Assembly: GCF_036507355.1 (NCBI RefSeq)
Contig: NZ_AP027877.1
DNA: 64,000 nucleotides
Direction: 5' to 3' (one strand)
Origin: Escherichia coli
GTDB taxonomy: Bacteria; Pseudomonadota; Gammaproteobacteria; Enterobacterales; Enterobacteriaceae
Shown here: positions 10,078 to 52,847 of the stretch, in pieces
How the letters are laid out: each line of letters begins with the position of its first letter
How positions within the stretch are numbered: position 1 is the stretch's first letter
Position numbers and translations under genes: made by a program
The notes under the pieces: generated by a model
The model's database searches: none
What the model saw: only the letters and a program-made list of their open reading frames with translations
Told to the model about the DNA's origin: nothing

Positions 10078-11499
10078 ATGATGAGCAAAATAAACCAAAC
10101 GGATATCGATCGGTTGATTGAACTGGTCGGCGGGCGCGGCAATATTGCGACGGTGAGCCACTGTATTACTCGCCTGCGCTTTGTCCTCAACCAACCGGCC
10201 AATGCCAGACCGAAAGAAATTGAGCAACTCCCCATGGTGAAAGGCTGTTTCACCAATGCCGGGCAATTTCAGGTGGTGATTGGCACCAATGTGGGTGATT
10301 ACTATCAAGCACTGATTGCGTCAACCGGACAGGCGCAGGTTGATAAAGAGCAGGTAAAAAAAGCCGCCCGGCAGAATATGAAATGGCATGAGCAGTTGAT
10401 CTCTCATTTCGCGGAGATCTTCTTCCCGCTGCTGCCCGCGTTGATTAGCGGCGGTTTGATCCTCGGTTTTCGCAATGTGATCGGCGATTTGCCCATGAGC
10501 AACGGTCAGACGCTGGCGCAAATGTACCCTTCCCTGCAAACGATCTACGATTTTCTATGGTTGATCGGTGAAGCGATCTTCTTCTACCTGCCGGTCGGGA
10601 TTTGCTGGTCAGCGGTGAAAAAAATGGGCGGCACGCCGATCCTTGGTATCGTGCTTGGCGTGACACTGGTTTCTCCACAGCTGATGAACGCTTATCTGCT
10701 CGGGCAGCAGCTGCCGGAAGTGTGGGACTTTGGCATGTTCAGCATCGCCAAAGTAGGCTATCAGGCGCAGGTGATCCCGGCACTGTTAGCCGGGCTGGCG
10801 CTGGGCGTTATTGAAACTCGCCTTAAACGCATCGTGCCGGATTACCTCTATCTGGTGGTGGTGCCCGTCTGTTCGCTGATCCTCGCGGTGTTCCTCGCCC
10901 ATGCGCTGATTGGTCCGTTTGGTCGCATGATTGGCGATGGCGTTGCCTTTGCGGTACGTCACCTGATGACCGGCAGCTTTGCTCCGATTGGCGCAGCATT
11001 GTTTGGCTTCCTGTACGCCCCGCTGGTGATCACCGGGGTACACCAGACCACGCTTGCTATTGATTTGCAGATGATTCAAAGCATGGGTGGTACGCCAGTG
11101 TGGCCGCTGATTGCGCTGTCGAATATCGCTCAGGGCTCCGCCGTGATAGGCATTATCATTTCCAGCCGCAAGCACAATGAACGCGAGATCTCCGTGCCTG
11201 CCGCTATCTCCGCCTGGCTTGGGGTCACTGAGCCTGCAATGTACGGCATCAACCTGAAATATCGCTTCCCGATGCTGTGCGCGATGATTGGTTCTGGTCT
11301 GGCAGGATTGCTATGCGGCCTGAACGGCGTTATGGCGAATGGCATCGGCGTAGGCGGCCTGCCGGGAATTCTCTCGATTCAACCGAGCTACTGGCAGGTG
11401 TTTGCGCTGGCAATGGCTATCGCCATCATCATCCCGATTGTACTCACCTCGTTTATCTATCAGCGGAAATACCGCCTGGGCACGCTGGACATTGTTTAA
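10078..11499 (+). CDS. treB: PTS trehalose-specific EIIBC component
   Basis: 473-aa ORF; EIIB cysteine motif (HCITRLRF) then polytopic membrane domain. Confidence 0.95.
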   Translation: MMSKINQTDIDRLIELVGGRGNIATVSHCITRLRFVLNQPANARPKEIEQLPMVKGCFTNAGQFQVVIGTNVGDYYQALIASTGQAQVDKEQVKKAARQNMKWHEQLISHFAEIFFPLLPALISGGLILGFRNVIGDLPMSNGQTLAQMYPSLQTIYDFLWLIGEAIFFYLPVGICWSAVKKMGGTPILGIVLGVTLVSPQLMNAYLLGQQLPEVWDFGMFSIAKVGYQAQVIPALLAGLALGVIETRLKRIVPDYLYLVVVPVCSLILAVFLAHALIGPFGRMIGDGVAFAVRHLMTGSFAPIGAALFGFLYAPLVITGVHQTTLAIDLQMIQSMGGTPVWPLIALSNIAQGSAVIGIIISSRKHNEREISVPAAISAWLGVTEPAMYGINLKYRFPMLCAMIGSGLAGLLCGLNGVMANGIGVGGLPGILSIQPSYWQVFALAMAIAIIIPIVLTSFIYQRKYRLGTLDIV

Positions 11500-11548: not shown

Positions 11549-13204
11549 ATGACTAATCTTCCCCACTGGTGGCAAAACGGCGTTATCTACCAGATTTATC
11601 CAAAGAGTTTTCAGGACACCACGGGTAGCGGCACCGGCGATTTACGTGGCGTTATCCAACGCCTGGACTATCTGCATAAACTGGGCGTTGATGCCATCTG
11701 GCTAACCCCCTTTTATGTCTCTCCCCAGGTCGATAACGGTTACGACGTAGCGAACTATACGGCGATTGATCCCACCTACGGCACGCTGGACGATTTTGAC
11801 GAACTGGTGACGCAGGCAAAATCGCGCGGGATTCGTATCATTCTCGATATGGTGTTTAACCATACCTCTACCCAACATGCCTGGTTTCGCGAGGCGCTGA
11901 ACAAAGAAAGCCCTTACCGCCAGTTTTATATCTGGCGCGATGGAGAACCAGAAACGCCACCGAACAACTGGCGTTCAAAATTTGGCGGTAGTGCGTGGCG
12001 CTGGCATGCGGAAAGCGAACAGTACTATTTGCATCTCTTTGCACCAGAACAGGCGGATCTCAACTGGGAGAATCCAGCGGTACGCGCAGAGCTGAAAAAA
12101 GTCTGTGAGTTCTGGGCCGATCGTGGGGTCGACGGGTTGCGCCTGGATGTGGTGAATCTGATCTCCAAAGACCCGCGTTTCCCTGAAGACCTGGACGGCG
12201 ACGGGCGTCGCTTCTACACCGACGGGCCACGAGCACACGAGTTTTTGCACGAGATGAACCGCGATGTGTTTACGCCACGCGGGTTAATGACCGTAGGTGA
12301 AATGTCCTCCACCAGCCTTGAGCATTGCCAGCGATACGCGGCTCTGACAGGCAGTGAATTGTCGATGACCTTTAATTTTCATCACCTGAAGGTCGATTAT
12401 CCCGGTGGTGAAAAATGGACGCTGGCTAAACCTGACTTTGTGGCGTTGAAAACATTGTTCCGCCACTGGCAACAAGGAATGCACAACGTAGCATGGAATG
12501 CCTTGTTCTGGTGTAACCACGATCAGCCGCGCATTGTTTCTCGCTTTGGTGATGAAGGTGAATACCGCGTGCCTGCGGCAAAAATGCTGGCGATGGTGCT
12601 GCATGGCATGCAGGGAACGCCGTATATCTACCAGGGCGAAGAGATTGGCATGACCAACCCGCATTTCACGCGCATTACTGACTATCGCGACGTAGAGAGC
12701 CTCAATATGTTTGCCGAGCTGCGCAACGATGGTCGTGATGCCGACGAATTATTGGCAATCCTCGCCAGTAAATCCCGTGACAACAGTCGCACGCCCATGC
12801 AATGGAGCAACGGCGATAATGCCGGGTTTACGGCTGGCGAACCGTGGATTAGCCTGGGCGATAACTATCAACAAATCAACGTAGAAGCCGCGCTGGCCGA
12901 TGAGTCCTCGGTGTTTTACACCTACCAAAAGTTAATCGCACTACGTAAGCAAGAAGCCGTTCTGACATGGGGCAATTACCAGGATCTGCTGCCAAACAGC
13001 CCTGTATTGTGGTGCTATCGCCGTGAATGGAAGGGGCAAACCTTGCTGGTCATTGCCAACCTTAGCCGTGAGATCCAACCCTGGCAGCCAGAGCAAATGC
13101 GCGGCAACTGGCAGCTTGTGATGCATAACTACGAAGAAGCCTCACCACAACCCTGTGCCATGACTTTACGGCCTTTTGAGGCTGTCTGGTGGTTACAGAA
13201 GTAA
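11549..13204 (+). CDS. treC: Trehalose-6-phosphate hydrolase (GH13)
   Basis: 551 aa from ATG at 11549 (MTNLPHWWQNGVIYQIYP) after AGGAA SD; GH13 motif GVDGLRLDVVN. Confidence 0.95.
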   Translation: MTNLPHWWQNGVIYQIYPKSFQDTTGSGTGDLRGVIQRLDYLHKLGVDAIWLTPFYVSPQVDNGYDVANYTAIDPTYGTLDDFDELVTQAKSRGIRIILDMVFNHTSTQHAWFREALNKESPYRQFYIWRDGEPETPPNNWRSKFGGSAWRWHAESEQYYLHLFAPEQADLNWENPAVRAELKKVCEFWADRGVDGLRLDVVNLISKDPRFPEDLDGDGRRFYTDGPRAHEFLHEMNRDVFTPRGLMTVGEMSSTSLEHCQRYAALTGSELSMTFNFHHLKVDYPGGEKWTLAKPDFVALKTLFRHWQQGMHNVAWNALFWCNHDQPRIVSRFGDEGEYRVPAAKMLAMVLHGMQGTPYIYQGEEIGMTNPHFTRITDYRDVESLNMFAELRNDGRDADELLAILASKSRDNSRTPMQWSNGDNAGFTAGEPWISLGDNYQQINVEAALADESSVFYTYQKLIALRKQEAVLTWGNYQDLLPNSPVLWCYRREWKGQTLLVIANLSREIQPWQPEQMRGNWQLVMHNYEEASPQPCAMTLRPFEAVWWLQK

Positions 13205-13216
13205 ATCTTCGCTAAG

Positions 13217-13249
13217 CCCCGGTAATGCCTGTCATTCCGGGGTTTTGTC
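13217..13249 (+). terminator. Rho-independent terminator after treC
   Basis: CCCCGG...CCGGGG stem followed by TTTTGTCT. Confidence 0.7.
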
Positions 13250-13347
13250 TGTCAGCATGTTGTTTTTGTTGATTTTTCAACCAGAAAATTCATTAAAAAA
13301 TTTACATAACGCTGTAGCGCCCGTCATCCGTACGCTCTGCTTTTTAC

Positions 13348-13437
13348 TTTGAGCTACATCAAAAAAAGTTCAAACATCCTTGATGCAAAGCACTATATAT
13401 AGACTTTAAAATGCGTCCCAACCCAATATGTTGTATT
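13348..13437 (+). promoter_or_regulatory. nrdDG promoter region: FNR-like site and two NrdR-box-like palindromes
   Basis: TTGAGctacATCAA at 13348-13362 (9/10 to FNR consensus TTGAT-N4-ATCAA); GCACTATATATAGACT (~13390-13405) and CCCAATATGTTGTATT (~13422-13437) resemble NrdR boxes; about 160-250 bp upstream of nrdD. Confidence 0.55.
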
Positions 13438-13597
13438 AATCGACTATAATTGCTACTACAGCTCCCCACGAAAAAGGTGCGGCGTTGTGGATAAGCGGAT
13501 GGCGATTGCGGAAAGCACCGGAAAACGAAACGAAAAAACCGGAAAACGCCTTTCCCAATTTCTGTGGATAACCTGTTCTTAAAAATATGGAGCGATC

Positions 13598-15736
13598 ATG
13601 ACACCGCATGTGATGAAACGAGACGGCTGCAAAGTGCCGTTTAAATCAGAGCGCATCAAAGAAGCGATTCTGCGTGCAGCTAAAGCAGCGGAAGTCGATG
13701 ATGCAGATTATTGCGCCACTGTTGCTGCGGTTGTCAGCGAGCAGATGCAAGGCCGTAACCAGGTGGATATCAACGAGATCCAGACCGCAGTTGAAAACCA
13801 GCTGATGTCAGGTCCATACAAACAACTGGCTCGTGCTTACATCGAGTACCGTCACGATCGCGACATTGAACGTGAAAAACGCGGTCGCCTGAACCAGGAG
13901 ATCCGTGGTCTGGTCGAGCAGACCAACGCCTCGTTACTCAACGAAAACGCCAACAAAGACAGCAAGGTGATTCCAACCCAGCGCGACCTGCTGGCCGGGA
14001 TCGTGGCTAAACACTATGCACGCCAGCACCTGCTGCCGCGTGACGTGGTGCAGGCACATGAGCGTGGCGATATTCACTATCACGATCTCGATTACTCGCC
14101 GTTCTTCCCGATGTTCAACTGCATGTTGATCGACCTGAAAGGCATGCTGACCCAGGGCTTTAAAATGGGGAACGCCGAGATTGAACCGCCGAAGTCGATC
14201 TCTACGGCAACCGCGGTAACTGCGCAGATTATTGCTCAGGTCGCCAGCCATATTTATGGCGGCACCACCATTAACCGTATCGATGAAGTGCTGGCGCCGT
14301 TTGTTACCGCCAGCTACAACAAACATCGCAAGACCGCAGAAGAGTGGAACATCCCGGACGCCGAAGGCTACGCTAACTCTCGTACCATCAAAGAGTGCTA
14401 CGATGCCTTCCAGTCGCTGGAGTACGAAGTAAACACCCTGCACACCGCCAACGGTCAGACGCCGTTTGTAACCTTTGGTTTTGGTCTGGGCACCAGCTGG
14501 GAATCGCGCCTGATTCAGGAATCGATCCTGCGTAACCGTATCGCAGGCCTCGGTAAAAACCGTAAAACTGCGGTGTTCCCGAAACTGGTGTTTGCGATTC
14601 GCGATGGCCTGAACCATAAAAAAGGCGATCCGAACTACGACATCAAACAGCTGGCGCTGGAGTGCGCAAGCAAGCGCATGTATCCGGATATCCTGAACTA
14701 CGATCAGGTAGTGAAAGTCACCGGTTCGTTTAAAACCCCGATGGGCTGCCGCAGCTTCCTCGGCGTGTGGGAAAATGAAAACGGCGAGCAGATCCACGAT
14801 GGTCGTAACAACCTCGGCGTGATCAGCCTGAACCTGCCGCGTATTGCTCTGGAAGCAAAAGGCGATGAAGCCACCTTCTGGAAGCTGCTGGATGAACGTC
14901 TGGTGCTGGCACGTAAGGCACTGATGACCCGTATCGCTCGTCTCGAAGGCGTGAAAGCGCGCGTCGCCCCGATCCTCTATATGGAAGGTGCTTGTGGCGT
15001 ACGTCTGAATGCTGACGATGATGTTTCTGAAATCTTCAAAAACGGTCGTGCGTCTATTTCGCTGGGTTACATCGGCATCCACGAAACCATTAACGCGCTG
15101 TTCGGCGGCGAGCATGTTTACGACAACGAGCAGCTTCGCGCGAAAGGTATCGCCATTGTTGAACGTCTGCGTCAGGCAGTGGATCAGTGGAAAGAAGAAA
15201 CGGGTTATGGTTTCAGTCTCTACAGCACGCCGAGTGAAAACCTGTGCGACCGCTTCTGCCGTCTCGATACTGCTGAGTTTGGCGTGGTGCCGGGCGTGAC
15301 CGATAAAGGTTACTACACCAACAGTTTCCACCTTGATGTGGAGAAGAAGGTGAACCCGTACGACAAGATCGACTTTGAAGCGCCTTACCCGCCGCTGGCG
15401 AACGGTGGTTTCATTTGCTACGGCGAGTATCCAAACATTCAGCACAACCTGAAAGCGCTGGAAGATGTCTGGGATTACAGCTATCAGCATGTACCGTATT
15501 ACGGCACCAATACACCGATTGATGAGTGCTACGAGTGTGGCTTTACCGGTGAGTTCGAGTGCACCAGCAAAGGCTTCACTTGCCCGAAATGTGGTAACCA
15601 TGACGCCTCCCGTGTGTCGGTAACTCGCCGCGTGTGCGGATATTTAGGTAGCCCGGATGCACGTCCATTTAACGCCGGTAAGCAGGAAGAAGTTAAGCGC
15701 CGCGTTAAACATTTGGGAAATGGGCAAATAGGTTAA
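13598..15736 (+). CDS. nrdD: Anaerobic ribonucleoside-triphosphate reductase (class III)
   Basis: 712-aa ORF; C-terminal glycyl-radical region (RRVCGYLG) and Cys cluster. Confidence 0.97.
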   Translation: MTPHVMKRDGCKVPFKSERIKEAILRAAKAAEVDDADYCATVAAVVSEQMQGRNQVDINEIQTAVENQLMSGPYKQLARAYIEYRHDRDIEREKRGRLNQEIRGLVEQTNASLLNENANKDSKVIPTQRDLLAGIVAKHYARQHLLPRDVVQAHERGDIHYHDLDYSPFFPMFNCMLIDLKGMLTQGFKMGNAEIEPPKSISTATAVTAQIIAQVASHIYGGTTINRIDEVLAPFVTASYNKHRKTAEEWNIPDAEGYANSRTIKECYDAFQSLEYEVNTLHTANGQTPFVTFGFGLGTSWESRLIQESILRNRIAGLGKNRKTAVFPKLVFAIRDGLNHKKGDPNYDIKQLALECASKRMYPDILNYDQVVKVTGSFKTPMGCRSFLGVWENENGEQIHDGRNNLGVISLNLPRIALEAKGDEATFWKLLDERLVLARKALMTRIARLEGVKARVAPILYMEGACGVRLNADDDVSEIFKNGRASISLGYIGIHETINALFGGEHVYDNEQLRAKGIAIVERLRQAVDQWKEETGYGFSLYSTPSENLCDRFCRLDTAEFGVVPGVTDKGYYTNSFHLDVEKKVNPYDKIDFEAPYPPLANGGFICYGEYPNIQHNLKALEDVWDYSYQHVPYYGTNTPIDECYECGFTGEFECTSKGFTCPKCGNHDASRVSVTRRVCGYLGSPDARPFNAGKQEEVKRRVKHLGNGQIG

Positions 15737-15893: not shown

Positions 15894-16358
15894 ATGAATT
15901 ATCATCAGTACTATCCTGTCGACATCGTCAACGGCCCCGGCACTCGCTGCACCTTGTTTGTCTCCGGGTGTGTTCATGAATGCCCCGGTTGCTATAACAA
16001 AAGCACCTGGCGGGTAAATTCTGGTCAGCCCTTTACCAAAGCAATGGAAGACCAGATCATTAACGATCTGAATGACACTCGTATCAAACGCCAGGGGATT
16101 TCCCTCTCCGGCGGCGATCCGCTGCATCCGCAAAACGTGCCGGATATTCTGAAACTGGTAAAACGCATCCGCGCCGAGTGTCCGGGTAAAGACATCTGGG
16201 TGTGGACAGGCTATAAACTCGACGAACTCAACGCTGCGCAAATGCAGGTTGTTGATTTGATTAACGTACTGGTCGACGGCAAATTTGTGCAGGATTTAAA
16301 AGACCCTTCCCTGATCTGGCGCGGCAGCAGCAATCAGGTGGTGCATCATTTGCGATGA
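15894..16358 (+). CDS. nrdG: Anaerobic ribonucleotide reductase activating protein (radical SAM)
   Basis: 154-aa ORF with Cys cluster (GCVHECPGCYN), downstream of nrdD. Confidence 0.95.
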   Translation: MNYHQYYPVDIVNGPGTRCTLFVSGCVHECPGCYNKSTWRVNSGQPFTKAMEDQIINDLNDTRIKRQGISLSGGDPLHPQNVPDILKLVKRIRAECPGKDIWVWTGYKLDELNAAQMQVVDLINVLVDGKFVQDLKDPSLIWRGSSNQVVHHLR

Positions 16359-16402: not shown

Positions 16403-16792
<390 letters not shown>

Positions 16793-27171: not shown

Positions 27172-27516
27172 GTTCTTCTAGCGCAATAACCCTGAACGCC
27201 GGGCTTCGGTTAGTAAGGGTTTTTTTATGCCCGCGATAAATAAACTCTCTATTCCACCATCATTATTCTCAGCGGTTGCAAGGCTTGAACGGTAAGAACA
27301 AGCAAACCCGACCACCATTTTGCTGTTCATAGCCACTTGCTGGAAGTTAGCCGACCTCACTCATACTCACCGTTCAAAGCGTGCCCCCGTTTTACCCCTG
27401 CACATTTGTGAACGCCAGCAGAGTTTTTTATGCGATTGCAGATATGGAAAGCGGCTCGGAGAGAAAAGCAAAAGATGGAAAAGTTACAAAAAAAAATCGC
27501 GAGATACATCGCATAA

Positions 27517-51454: not shown

Positions 51455-51762
51455 TTATTCAGCCTCCTGTCTGGGTCAGCCGAATCCCGGGGAGGCAAGG
51501 AACGTGTTAAAGGTCGGCTGAAAAATGACGCGTTATAGTACTTGTATGCCCCGCTAAACTCAAGGGCGGAGCAGAAATAAATCTCCCCTTTCGCAAATAA
51601 CCTCTAAACCGCTGATTTGAAGTTCATCACATTCCGTCACAGTGTTTTTTCGAACAACTGCATCAGAAATGGTCACCATCAACTTCTTTATCATTGATTA
51701 AAATTAAATCAGAAGATCATCACAGAGGAGAGCACATAAAGTCAGCCGTCGAGGAGGTATCT

Positions 51763-52038
51763 ATGTTCAGTCGAGTTTTAGCCCTTCTGGCTGTGCTTTT
51801 GCTAAGTGCAAATACATGGGCAGCCATTGAAATTAATAACCACCAGGCCAGAAATATGGACGATGTGCAAAGCTTAGGCGTGATTTATATCAATCATAAT
51901 TTCGCCACTGAAAGCGAAGCGCGTCAGGCATTAAATGAAGAGACAGATGCGCAGGGCGCAACGTACTACCACGTAATTCTGATGCGGGAACCGGGGAGTA
52001 ACGGCAATATGCACGCCAGCGCGGATATTTATCGCTAG
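51763..52038 (+). CDS. yjfY: DUF1471-family small periplasmic protein YjfY
   Basis: 91 aa from internal ATG (MFSRVLALLAVLLLSANTWA signal peptide). Confidence 0.85.
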   Translation: MFSRVLALLAVLLLSANTWAAIEINNHQARNMDDVQSLGVIYINHNFATESEARQALNEETDAQGATYYHVILMREPGSNGNMHASADIYR

Positions 52039-52167: not shown

Positions 52168-52847
52168 TTACTTCTGCCCGTAATAAGCGTTGGGACCGTG
52201 CTTACGCATGAAGTGTTTATTCATCAGGTAGCTGTCGATGTGATTGAGTTGTGGGTTAATGCCGCGGGCAATCCACGCCATTTTCGCCACTTCTTCCATC
52301 ACCACCGCGTTATGCACCGCATCGTGAGCATCTTTCCCCCAGGCGAACGGCCCGTGCTGATACACCACAATTCCCGGCGTATGCAGCGGCTCGGCGTTGC
52401 CCAGCGTTTCGATAATCACTTTGCCGGTGTTCAGTTCATACTCGCCCTGCACCTCTTCTTCGCTTAACCCGCGCGTACACGGAATGTCGCCAAAGAAGTA
52501 GTCGGCGTGCGTGGTGCCTAACGCCGGGATCGCCAGCCCCGCCTGCGCCCATGCGGTAGCATGAGTTGAGTGGGTATGGACAATGCCGCCAAGCGACGGG
52601 TAACGACGGTAGAGTTCAAGATGCGTCGCGGTGTCGGAAGACGGACGATATTCCCCTTCCACCACCTTACCGCTCATATCGACCACCACCATATCGTCTG
52701 CTTTCATGGGGCGACGCCGCTGGGCTTGATCACCACCAGCCCGCGTTCGCGGTCGATAGCGCTGACGTTGCCCCAAGTAAAGGTCACCAGCCCATAGCGC
52801 GGCAGATCCATGTTGGCTTCAAACACCTGCTGTTTTAGCTTTTGCAT
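52168..52847 (-). pseudogene. ulaF: ulaF (L-ribulose-5-phosphate 4-epimerase) inactivated by a ~7-bp deletion frameshift
   Basis: ORF track splits it into 52704..52895 (residues 1-46, ...VIKPSGVA then P*) and 52168..52776 (...[18 protein letters not shown]... to C-terminus); the expected YET tripeptide between them is missing. Span is 680 bp versus 687 bp expected. Confidence 0.85.

Follow-up and report, generated by a model that had tools for sequence, protein, structure and literature searches.

The known FNR, NrdR and DnaA sites of the nrdDG control region are retained in an Escherichia coli genome segment with several decayed genes

Results

Gene order and identity to K-12

The window, i.e., the whole stretch of DNA that was analyzed, has a length of 64 kb and is collinear with the region 4476-4412 kb of K-12, with an identity of 98-99%. 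It contains nrdD and nrdG, which encode the class III anaerobic ribonucleotide reductase, downstream of three tre genes. The following features define the locus:

9012-9959, treR
10078-11499, treB
11549-13204, treC (stop codon at 13204)
13205-13597, treC-nrdD intergenic region, 393 bp
13214-13246, plus strand, putative intrinsic terminator of treBC, with a GC-rich hairpin and a UUUU tail; bounds the nrdDG control region on the upstream side
13598-15736, plus strand, nrdD coding sequence, 712 aa, intact, with the Pfam domains ATP-cone, NRDD and Gly_radical
15894-16358, plus strand, nrdG coding sequence, 154 aa, intact

The hairpin starts 10 nt past the treC stop codon and had been overlooked by a simple scan. 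Its predicted RNA fold has a free energy of -18.5 kcal/mol (z = -4.3), and none of 200 shuffled sequences was as stable. Together with the U-run it is probably the treBC terminator, as judged from its structure and position.

Among 5,426 complete genomes of E. coli, 5,425 had a match to the intergenic region, located upstream of the annotated nrdD. Compared with MG1655, the treC-nrdD region has six SNPs in 396 bp. Five of them are located upstream of 13310, outside of the known sites, and the sixth, at 13369 (T in place of C), falls in the spacer that separates both FNR sites and is the sole difference to K-12 in the regulatory core. From 13370 through the nrdD ATG every base is the same as in K-12. 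At the same locus, the two FNR 14-mers, the NrdR boxes with the 15-bp linker between them, the DnaA boxes and the entire leader are those of the MG1655 nrdDG promoter. A 58-mer covering the FNR sites, with the T at 13369, is shared without changes by 2,998 of 5,419 E. coli genomes, and a 57-mer covering the NrdR boxes by 4,565 of 5,422. The core sequence is a common E. coli allele. The exact NrdD protein was indexed in 52,233 blocks of the assembly collection, which is too many to be informative about the source.

For the analysis of conservation, 450 bp upstream of nrdD were collected from 80 loci of different Enterobacterales species, and the counts given below refer to 81 sequences. Mean conservation values refer to 70 aligned, distinct sequences of Enterobacteriaceae.

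Two FNR sites upstream of nrdDG

The sites that were localized between the treBC terminator and the nrdD start codon are the following, with positions relative to the inferred transcription start:

13349-13362, no strand assigned, FNR site 2 (upstream), TTGAGCTACATCAA, centre 13355.5, published position -64.5
13380-13393, no strand assigned, FNR site 1 (promoter-proximal), TTGATGCAAAGCAC, centre 13386.5, published position -33.5
13390-13405, no strand assigned, NrdR box 1, GCACTATATATAGACT, about -30 to -15
13407-13412, plus strand, putative -10 hexamer TAAAAT, -13 to -8
13420, plus strand, inferred nrdDG transcription start (+1)
13421-13436, no strand assigned, NrdR box 2, in register, ACCCAATATGTTGTAT, about +2 to +17
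13486-13494, minus strand, DnaA box in the nrdD leader, perfect 9-mer TTATCCACA, about +67 to +75
13563-13582, minus strand, published "double DnaA box", i.e., a perfect TTATCCACA at 13563-13571, 2 bp, and a weak TTAAGAACA at 13574-13582, about +144 to +163

The initial annotation of the sequence had claimed an "FNR half-site pair" between 13340 and 13440 that agrees with the FNR consensus at nine of ten positions. The motif is indeed present in this region, and TTGAGCTACATCAA agrees with the consensus TTGATnnnnATCAA at nine of ten positions, but it is one complete FNR site and not a pair of half-sites. A bare match of this quality is not beyond chance, i.e., six matches to TTGATNNNNATCAA with at most one mismatch were found in the 64 kb, versus 2.9 +/- 1.6 expected. 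A weight matrix was then derived from Table S6 of Myers et al. 2013 (PMC3688515), i.e., from 62 ChIP-supported FNR sites without the nrdD site, and it placed FNR site 2 at rank 1 of the 63,987 window positions, with 17.9 bits.

The same study reported the motif TTGATGTAGCTCAA at an FNR ChIP-seq peak at nrdD in K-12 (summit at 4460925, U00096.2), with a PatSer score of 15.68 and a ln p of -14.45, compared with a cut-off of -10.75 (PMC3688515). This motif is the reverse complement of the window 14-mer at 13349-13362. The supplementary FNR expression table of Myers 2013 lists ratios of 0.36 for nrdD and 0.27 for nrdG (PMC3688515). Site 2 reached at least 10 bits in 80 of the 81 sequences, and its start was 41 bp ahead of NrdR box 1 in 65 sequences; in a further 14 the distance was 38-40 bp.

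Two other positions in the window also had high FNR matrix scores. The second-best match was GTGATTTATATCAA (51880-51893, 17.3 bits) within yjfY, and the third-best was TTGATTAAAATTAA (51694-51707, 15.2 bits) in the rpsF-yjfY intergenic region. In an excerpt of the Myers 2013 peak list, none of the FNR peaks is located between nsrR and nrdD.

The promoter-proximal site had not been described in the initial annotation. It scored 10.8 bits with the same matrix, which is rank 10 in the window, and it keeps a perfect TTGAT half. The two sites are spaced by 31 bp, which matches the published positions, i.e., -33.5 for site 1 and -64.5 for site 2 according to PMC10425943, which cites Roca et al. 2008. 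Anoxic SAXS revealed two FNR dimers on the K-12 54-mer TACTTTGAGCTACATCAAAAAAAGCTCAAACATCCTTGATGCAAAGCACTATAT (PMC10425943), from which the window differs by one mismatch, the spacer base at 13369. Activating FNR sites are mostly centred at -41.5 (Myers 2013, PMC3688515), and a position of -33.5 is unusual. Table S6 of Myers 2013, which contains only motifs that pass the cut-off, has one motif at nrdD, and site 1 is missing from it.

In 63 of the 81 sequences site 1 reached at least 10 bits, and it always started 10 bp before NrdR box 1. The commonest form was TTGATGCAAATCAC, with a score of 15.4 bits. A site 1 of at least 10 bits was absent, among others, in five distant genera, i.e., Edwardsiella, Hafnia, Yersinia, Dickeya and Serratia.

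A pair of NrdR boxes at the promoter

Two AT-rich 16-mers had been claimed to resemble NrdR boxes. Both are present, and the first, GCACTATATATAGACT at 13390-13405, had been placed exactly, but the second, CCCAATATGTTGTATT at 13422-13437, was off register by 1 nt. In its own frame CCCAATATGTTGTATT scores -18; it shares 15 of its 16 bases with the in-register box ACCCAATATGTTGTAT.

The two boxes are separated by a 15-bp linker, so that their centres are 31 bp apart. They span the stretch from 208 to 162 bp before the nrdD ATG, which overlaps with the inferred core promoter. Box 1 and FNR site 1 have 4 bp (GCAC) in common. The NrdR matrix was derived only from the boxes of nrdAB and nrdHIEF (probe sequences of PMC12176259), and the nrdDG boxes were kept out of it because circularity was to be avoided. 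With this matrix box 1 was the best match in the window (14.2 bits) and box 2 was the second-best (13.6 bits). The score of the pair at a spacing of 31 bp was 27.8, compared with a maximum of 19.6 in 100 simulated 64-kb sequences. Reportedly, Rodionov and Gelfand proposed ACACWATATATWGTGT as NrdR consensus in 2005. Each of the two boxes has three mismatches to ACACWATATATWGTGT, and they are the sole 16-mers in the 64 kb with three or fewer.

A third NrdR half-box, CTACTACAGCTCCCCA at 13453-13468, 32 bp past box 2, was considered and rejected. It contributes about 2.4 bits, as calculated by subtraction from the score of the pair (16.0), and its conservation is low.

The 57-bp nrdDG probe that has been used for binding studies (PMC12176259) corresponds to the window positions 13385-13441, without any differences. 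NrdR bound this probe with a KD of 160 nM in the presence of ATP and dATP and of 152 nM in the presence of ADP and dATP, and with ATP alone binding was not detected (PMC12176259). The linker at nrdDG was also given as 15 bp (PMC12176259). The affinity for the E. coli nrdAB and nrdHIEF probes was similar, i.e., 113-187 nM (PMC12176259). The box pairs of these two operons, like that of nrdDG, consist of imperfect palindromes of 16 bp with an AT core in the centre, separated by a linker of 15 bp, and they overlap the core promoter. The three operons have different partner regulators, i.e., nrdAB has DnaA and H-NS, nrdHIEF has Fur and IscR, and nrdDG has H-NS and FNR (PMC12176259).

In Salmonella, mutation of either NrdR box derepressed nrdDG (Panosa et al. 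2010, PMC2892513). The arrangement in Salmonella Typhimurium is like that in the window, with a distance of 31 bp both between the two NrdR boxes and between the two FNR sites, and a box 1 that overlaps an FNR site, an overlap that had been pointed out by the authors (PMC2892513). The NrdR pair was found in all 81 sequences, with pair scores of 20-34 and a spacing of 31 or 32 bp. The K-12 nrdR gene itself is located far outside of the region that is equivalent to the window.

Transcription start and -10 element

The transcription start at 13420 was deduced from the centre of FNR site 2 (13355.5) and its published position of -64.5 (PMC10425943). With this start, the hexamer TAAAAT at 13407-13412 is probably the -10 element, as judged from the published site positions. 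Its mean conservation in the 70 Enterobacteriaceae sequences is 0.94. A simple sigma-70 scan did not reveal any complete plus-strand promoter at the nrdDG control region, as would be expected if the promoter depends on an activator and lacks a good -35 element, and this outcome was not counted against a promoter.

A perfect TATAAT is present at 13445-13450, 9 bp after NrdR box 2. It does not have a matching -35 element, and it is partly conserved. It could belong to a secondary promoter, or it could only be part of a conserved early transcribed stretch.

DnaA boxes in the nrdD leader

From the inferred start the nrdD leader has a length of 178 nt. As DnaA boxes, 9-mers that fit TTATNCACA were accepted, ideally TTATCCACA. 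The window contains three perfect boxes, versus 0.4 expected, and two of them are located in the nrdD leader. The third, at 4693-4701, is within pyrB; it was treated as a chance match and rejected as a site.

In a DnaA ChIP-seq study, nrdD was among 16 bound regions, with a peak at 4462739 and a 62-fold coverage over the control (Wade lab 2024, PMC11317965). Based on the nrdD coordinates, this peak corresponds to about position 13519 of the window, between both perfect boxes. The double box tTTAAGAACAggTTATCCACAg of the same study (PMC11317965) corresponds to 13562-13583. Unlike the published double boxes, the second perfect box, 77 bp upstream at 13486-13494, does not have an adjoining partner, as judged by eye.

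The DnaA boxes were retained in nearly all of the 80 Enterobacterales loci. In the Enterobacteriaceae both leader boxes share one orientation. In nine loci from Edwardsiella, Hafnia, Limnobaculum, Yersinia, Dickeya and Serratia the upstream box is inverted, so that the two boxes (TTATCCACA ... TGTGGATAA) are convergent. The survival of the motif after a strand change in distant genera points to recognition of the DNA by a protein and not to an RNA element. An Rfam scan of 13150-13700 yielded only chance-level matches, far under the gathering scores, and no known RNA element in the leader.

Three loci, from Escherichia sp. ESNIH1, Pseudescherichia vulneris and UBA7338, have a leader that is about 105 bp shorter, with NrdR box 1 at -103 from the ATG versus about -208. 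A DnaA box was not found in these three leaders. Their FNR and NrdR sites are intact.

A direct repeat in the leader, ACCGGAAAACG at 13518-13528 and 13539-13549, was also considered as a site. It was rejected, as it falls in the stretch of the leader with the lowest conservation (mean 0.37).

Conservation and strength of the FNR sites

The conserved islands in the alignment of the 70 Enterobacteriaceae sequences fall on the mapped sites, as is exemplified by the following mean values:

FNR site 1, 0.92
NrdR box 2, 0.84
DnaA box 13486-13494, 0.93
Perfect box of the double DnaA box, 13563-13571, 0.94
Remaining leader, 0.37-0.49

The relative strength of the two FNR sites was different between genera. 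In most Enterobacteriaceae genera the proximal site is strong and nearly invariant (TTGATGCAAATCAC) and the distal site is weaker, at about 12-15 bits. The same was true for the Salmonella locus that was retrieved, from S. enterica subsp. arizonae, with 15.4 bits for the proximal site versus 12-15 bits for the distal site. In Escherichia the order is reversed. In the window and in E. albertii the distal site has about 17.8 bits and the proximal site about 10.7 bits, and in the E. coli representative of the survey the values are 18.3 bits and 6.3 bits, respectively. The 4-bp overlap of the proximal FNR site with NrdR box 1 was preserved throughout.

In these three Escherichia-lineage sequences the distal site is thus close to the consensus, and the proximal site is degraded. 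From these scores it is conceivable, although the odds are clearly against it, that the two nrdDG FNR sites have traded strength in the Escherichia lineage.

Decayed genes elsewhere in the window

Several other loci in the window differ from their K-12 counterparts:

252-815, yjgL, mostly lost; only nt 7-570 of 1815 align with K-12, with 90% identity
23723-25235, ytfR, 10-bp insertion and frameshift; 105 aa versus 500
27259-27388, chpSB site, without the chpS-chpB toxin-antitoxin pair that is found in K-12
39232-39999, IS1 in cpdB, 768 bp, with a 9-bp target duplication (gattaagtt), interrupting codon 4
52169-52847, ulaF, 7-bp gap and frameshift; open reading frame of 47 aa versus 228

The IS1 insertion cuts cpdB off from its own start codon and promoter. 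The element was assigned based on its recognisable ends and its sequence, and the matching E. coli elements are annotated as IS1 transposase. Among the 5,426 complete genomes of E. coli, only 19 covered most of a query across the cpdB/IS1 junction. The six top matches listed consist of two joined pieces that are about 550-580 bp apart, i.e., they have a different junction. Shigella does not seem to be included in this collection, and a Shigella origin is therefore putative.

At the position of cybC (cytochrome b562), downstream of nrdG, an open reading frame of 128 aa is present on the minus strand (16403-16789). In K-12 MG1655 cybC is an annotated pseudogene.

The initial annotation had remarked that the regulatory region is intact in a genome that is otherwise losing genes. 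As far as the window shows, this was borne out, with nrdD and nrdG at full length and cpdB, ulaF, ytfR and yjgL disrupted.

Discussion

Taken together, the segment is, with a probability of about 0.93, the native and fully preserved promoter and leader of nrdDG from the E. coli/Shigella lineage, which combines three known inputs. That the nrdDG control region has FNR, NrdR and DnaA sites is already known, and there is little new biology in their presence. Sequence identity, matrix ranks and conservation were determined here, and the ChIP-seq results for FNR and DnaA as well as the in vitro binding results for FNR and NrdR come from K-12 or from identical or near-identical DNA. The genes fnr, nrdR and dnaA are located outside of the window, and their presence in the genome is assumed.

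According to this reading, [4Fe-4S]-FNR dimers would occupy site 2 at -64.5 and site 1 at -33.5 when oxygen is absent, and they would activate a promoter with TAAAAT as -10 element and no usable -35 element. NrdR bound to its boxes would cover the stretch between -35 and -10 as well as the start site, and therefore RNA polymerase should be blocked sterically. Owing to the 4 bp that box 1 and FNR site 1 have in common, NrdR should probably also compete with FNR. The replication status would be a further input, with DnaA on the perfect boxes at 13486-13494 and 13563-13571 in the leader, from where it may act positively or negatively.

Three other explanations were weighed against this reading. 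The motifs could be chance matches in AT-rich intergenic DNA without any regulatory role, and indeed hits of the FNR consensus with one mismatch show no enrichment in the window. This explanation has practically no chance of being correct, given that FNR site 2 and the two NrdR boxes have the top ranks with their respective matrices, that the sites are conserved at fixed offsets over 80 loci from many genera, and that ChIP-seq, in vitro binding and mutant data have been published for the same sequences (PMC3688515, PMC12176259, PMC10425943, PMC2892513). Another explanation concerns the position of the promoter. If the main promoter or a second promoter made use of the TATAAT at 13445-13450, the FNR sites would be centred at about -70.5 and -101.5, a class I-type arrangement, and NrdR box 2 would lie over the -35 region. 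This would fit to the perfect -10 hexamer, to the partial conservation of 13437-13452 past NrdR box 2, and to the fact that an FNR site at -33.5 is atypical for activation. However, the published start places the FNR sites at -33.5 and -64.5 (PMC10425943), a -35 match is lacking at a distance of 16-18 bp from this hexamer, where the promoter scan was negative as well, and TAAAAT at 13407-13412 is better conserved (0.94) than TATAAT, so that a promoter at 13445-13450 is very improbable.

The last explanation is that only the upstream FNR site at 13349-13362 works in this lineage, and that TTGATGCAAAGCAC is a decayed relic, the space of which is merely filled by NrdR box 1. Site 1 is weak in the window (10.8 bits, rank 10), it has a G in Escherichia where most Enterobacteriaceae carry a T in TTGATGCAAATCAC, and in one Escherichia representative its score is down to 6.3 bits. 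In addition, the site is missing in the distant genera named above, and only a single above-threshold motif was listed at nrdD (Myers 2013 Table S6, PMC3688515). On the other hand, two FNR dimers were observed by SAXS on the K-12 54-mer (PMC10425943), and the site retains its perfect TTGAT half and the exact 31-bp spacing to site 2. A loss of function of site 1 is thus unlikely, but less so than a promoter at the downstream TATAAT. Site 1 was reportedly found by Roca and colleagues in 2008 to be required for full induction. The preferred reading remains a control region in which both FNR sites take part.

With respect to the initial annotation, the scans with the FNR and NrdR matrices and the comparison with mapped sites had the same outcome. 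The matrices ranked the claimed motifs first (FNR) as well as first and second (NrdR), and the FNR ChIP-seq motif, the published FNR positions and the 57-bp NrdR probe all coincide with them. The proposed anaerobic and dNTP-responsive control of nrdDG is well founded, because the FNR and NrdR sites are the published ones and the Salmonella box mutants derepress nrdDG. The account was incomplete and not wrong, i.e., it had missed FNR site 1, the overlap of this site with NrdR box 1, and the DnaA boxes of the leader. The locus can serve as a clean positive control, in which a reader without any tools placed the published FNR site and both NrdR boxes to within one base. Position, pairing, spacing and context were reliable in such calls. 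The match to nine of ten consensus positions was unreliable, because about three are expected by chance per 64 kb.

If the exchange of strength between the two FNR sites is functional, anaerobic activation would have moved to the distal site in Escherichia. The direct competition between FNR and NrdR at the proximal site would then be looser, and oxygen and dATP signals would be combined in an altered way. For the organism itself, the system for anaerobic dNTP supply has been maintained together with all of its known control sites, while the neighbouring genes cpdB, ulaF, ytfR and yjgL are decaying. The maintenance of this system amid decay fits to a gut-adapted, facultatively anaerobic lifestyle.
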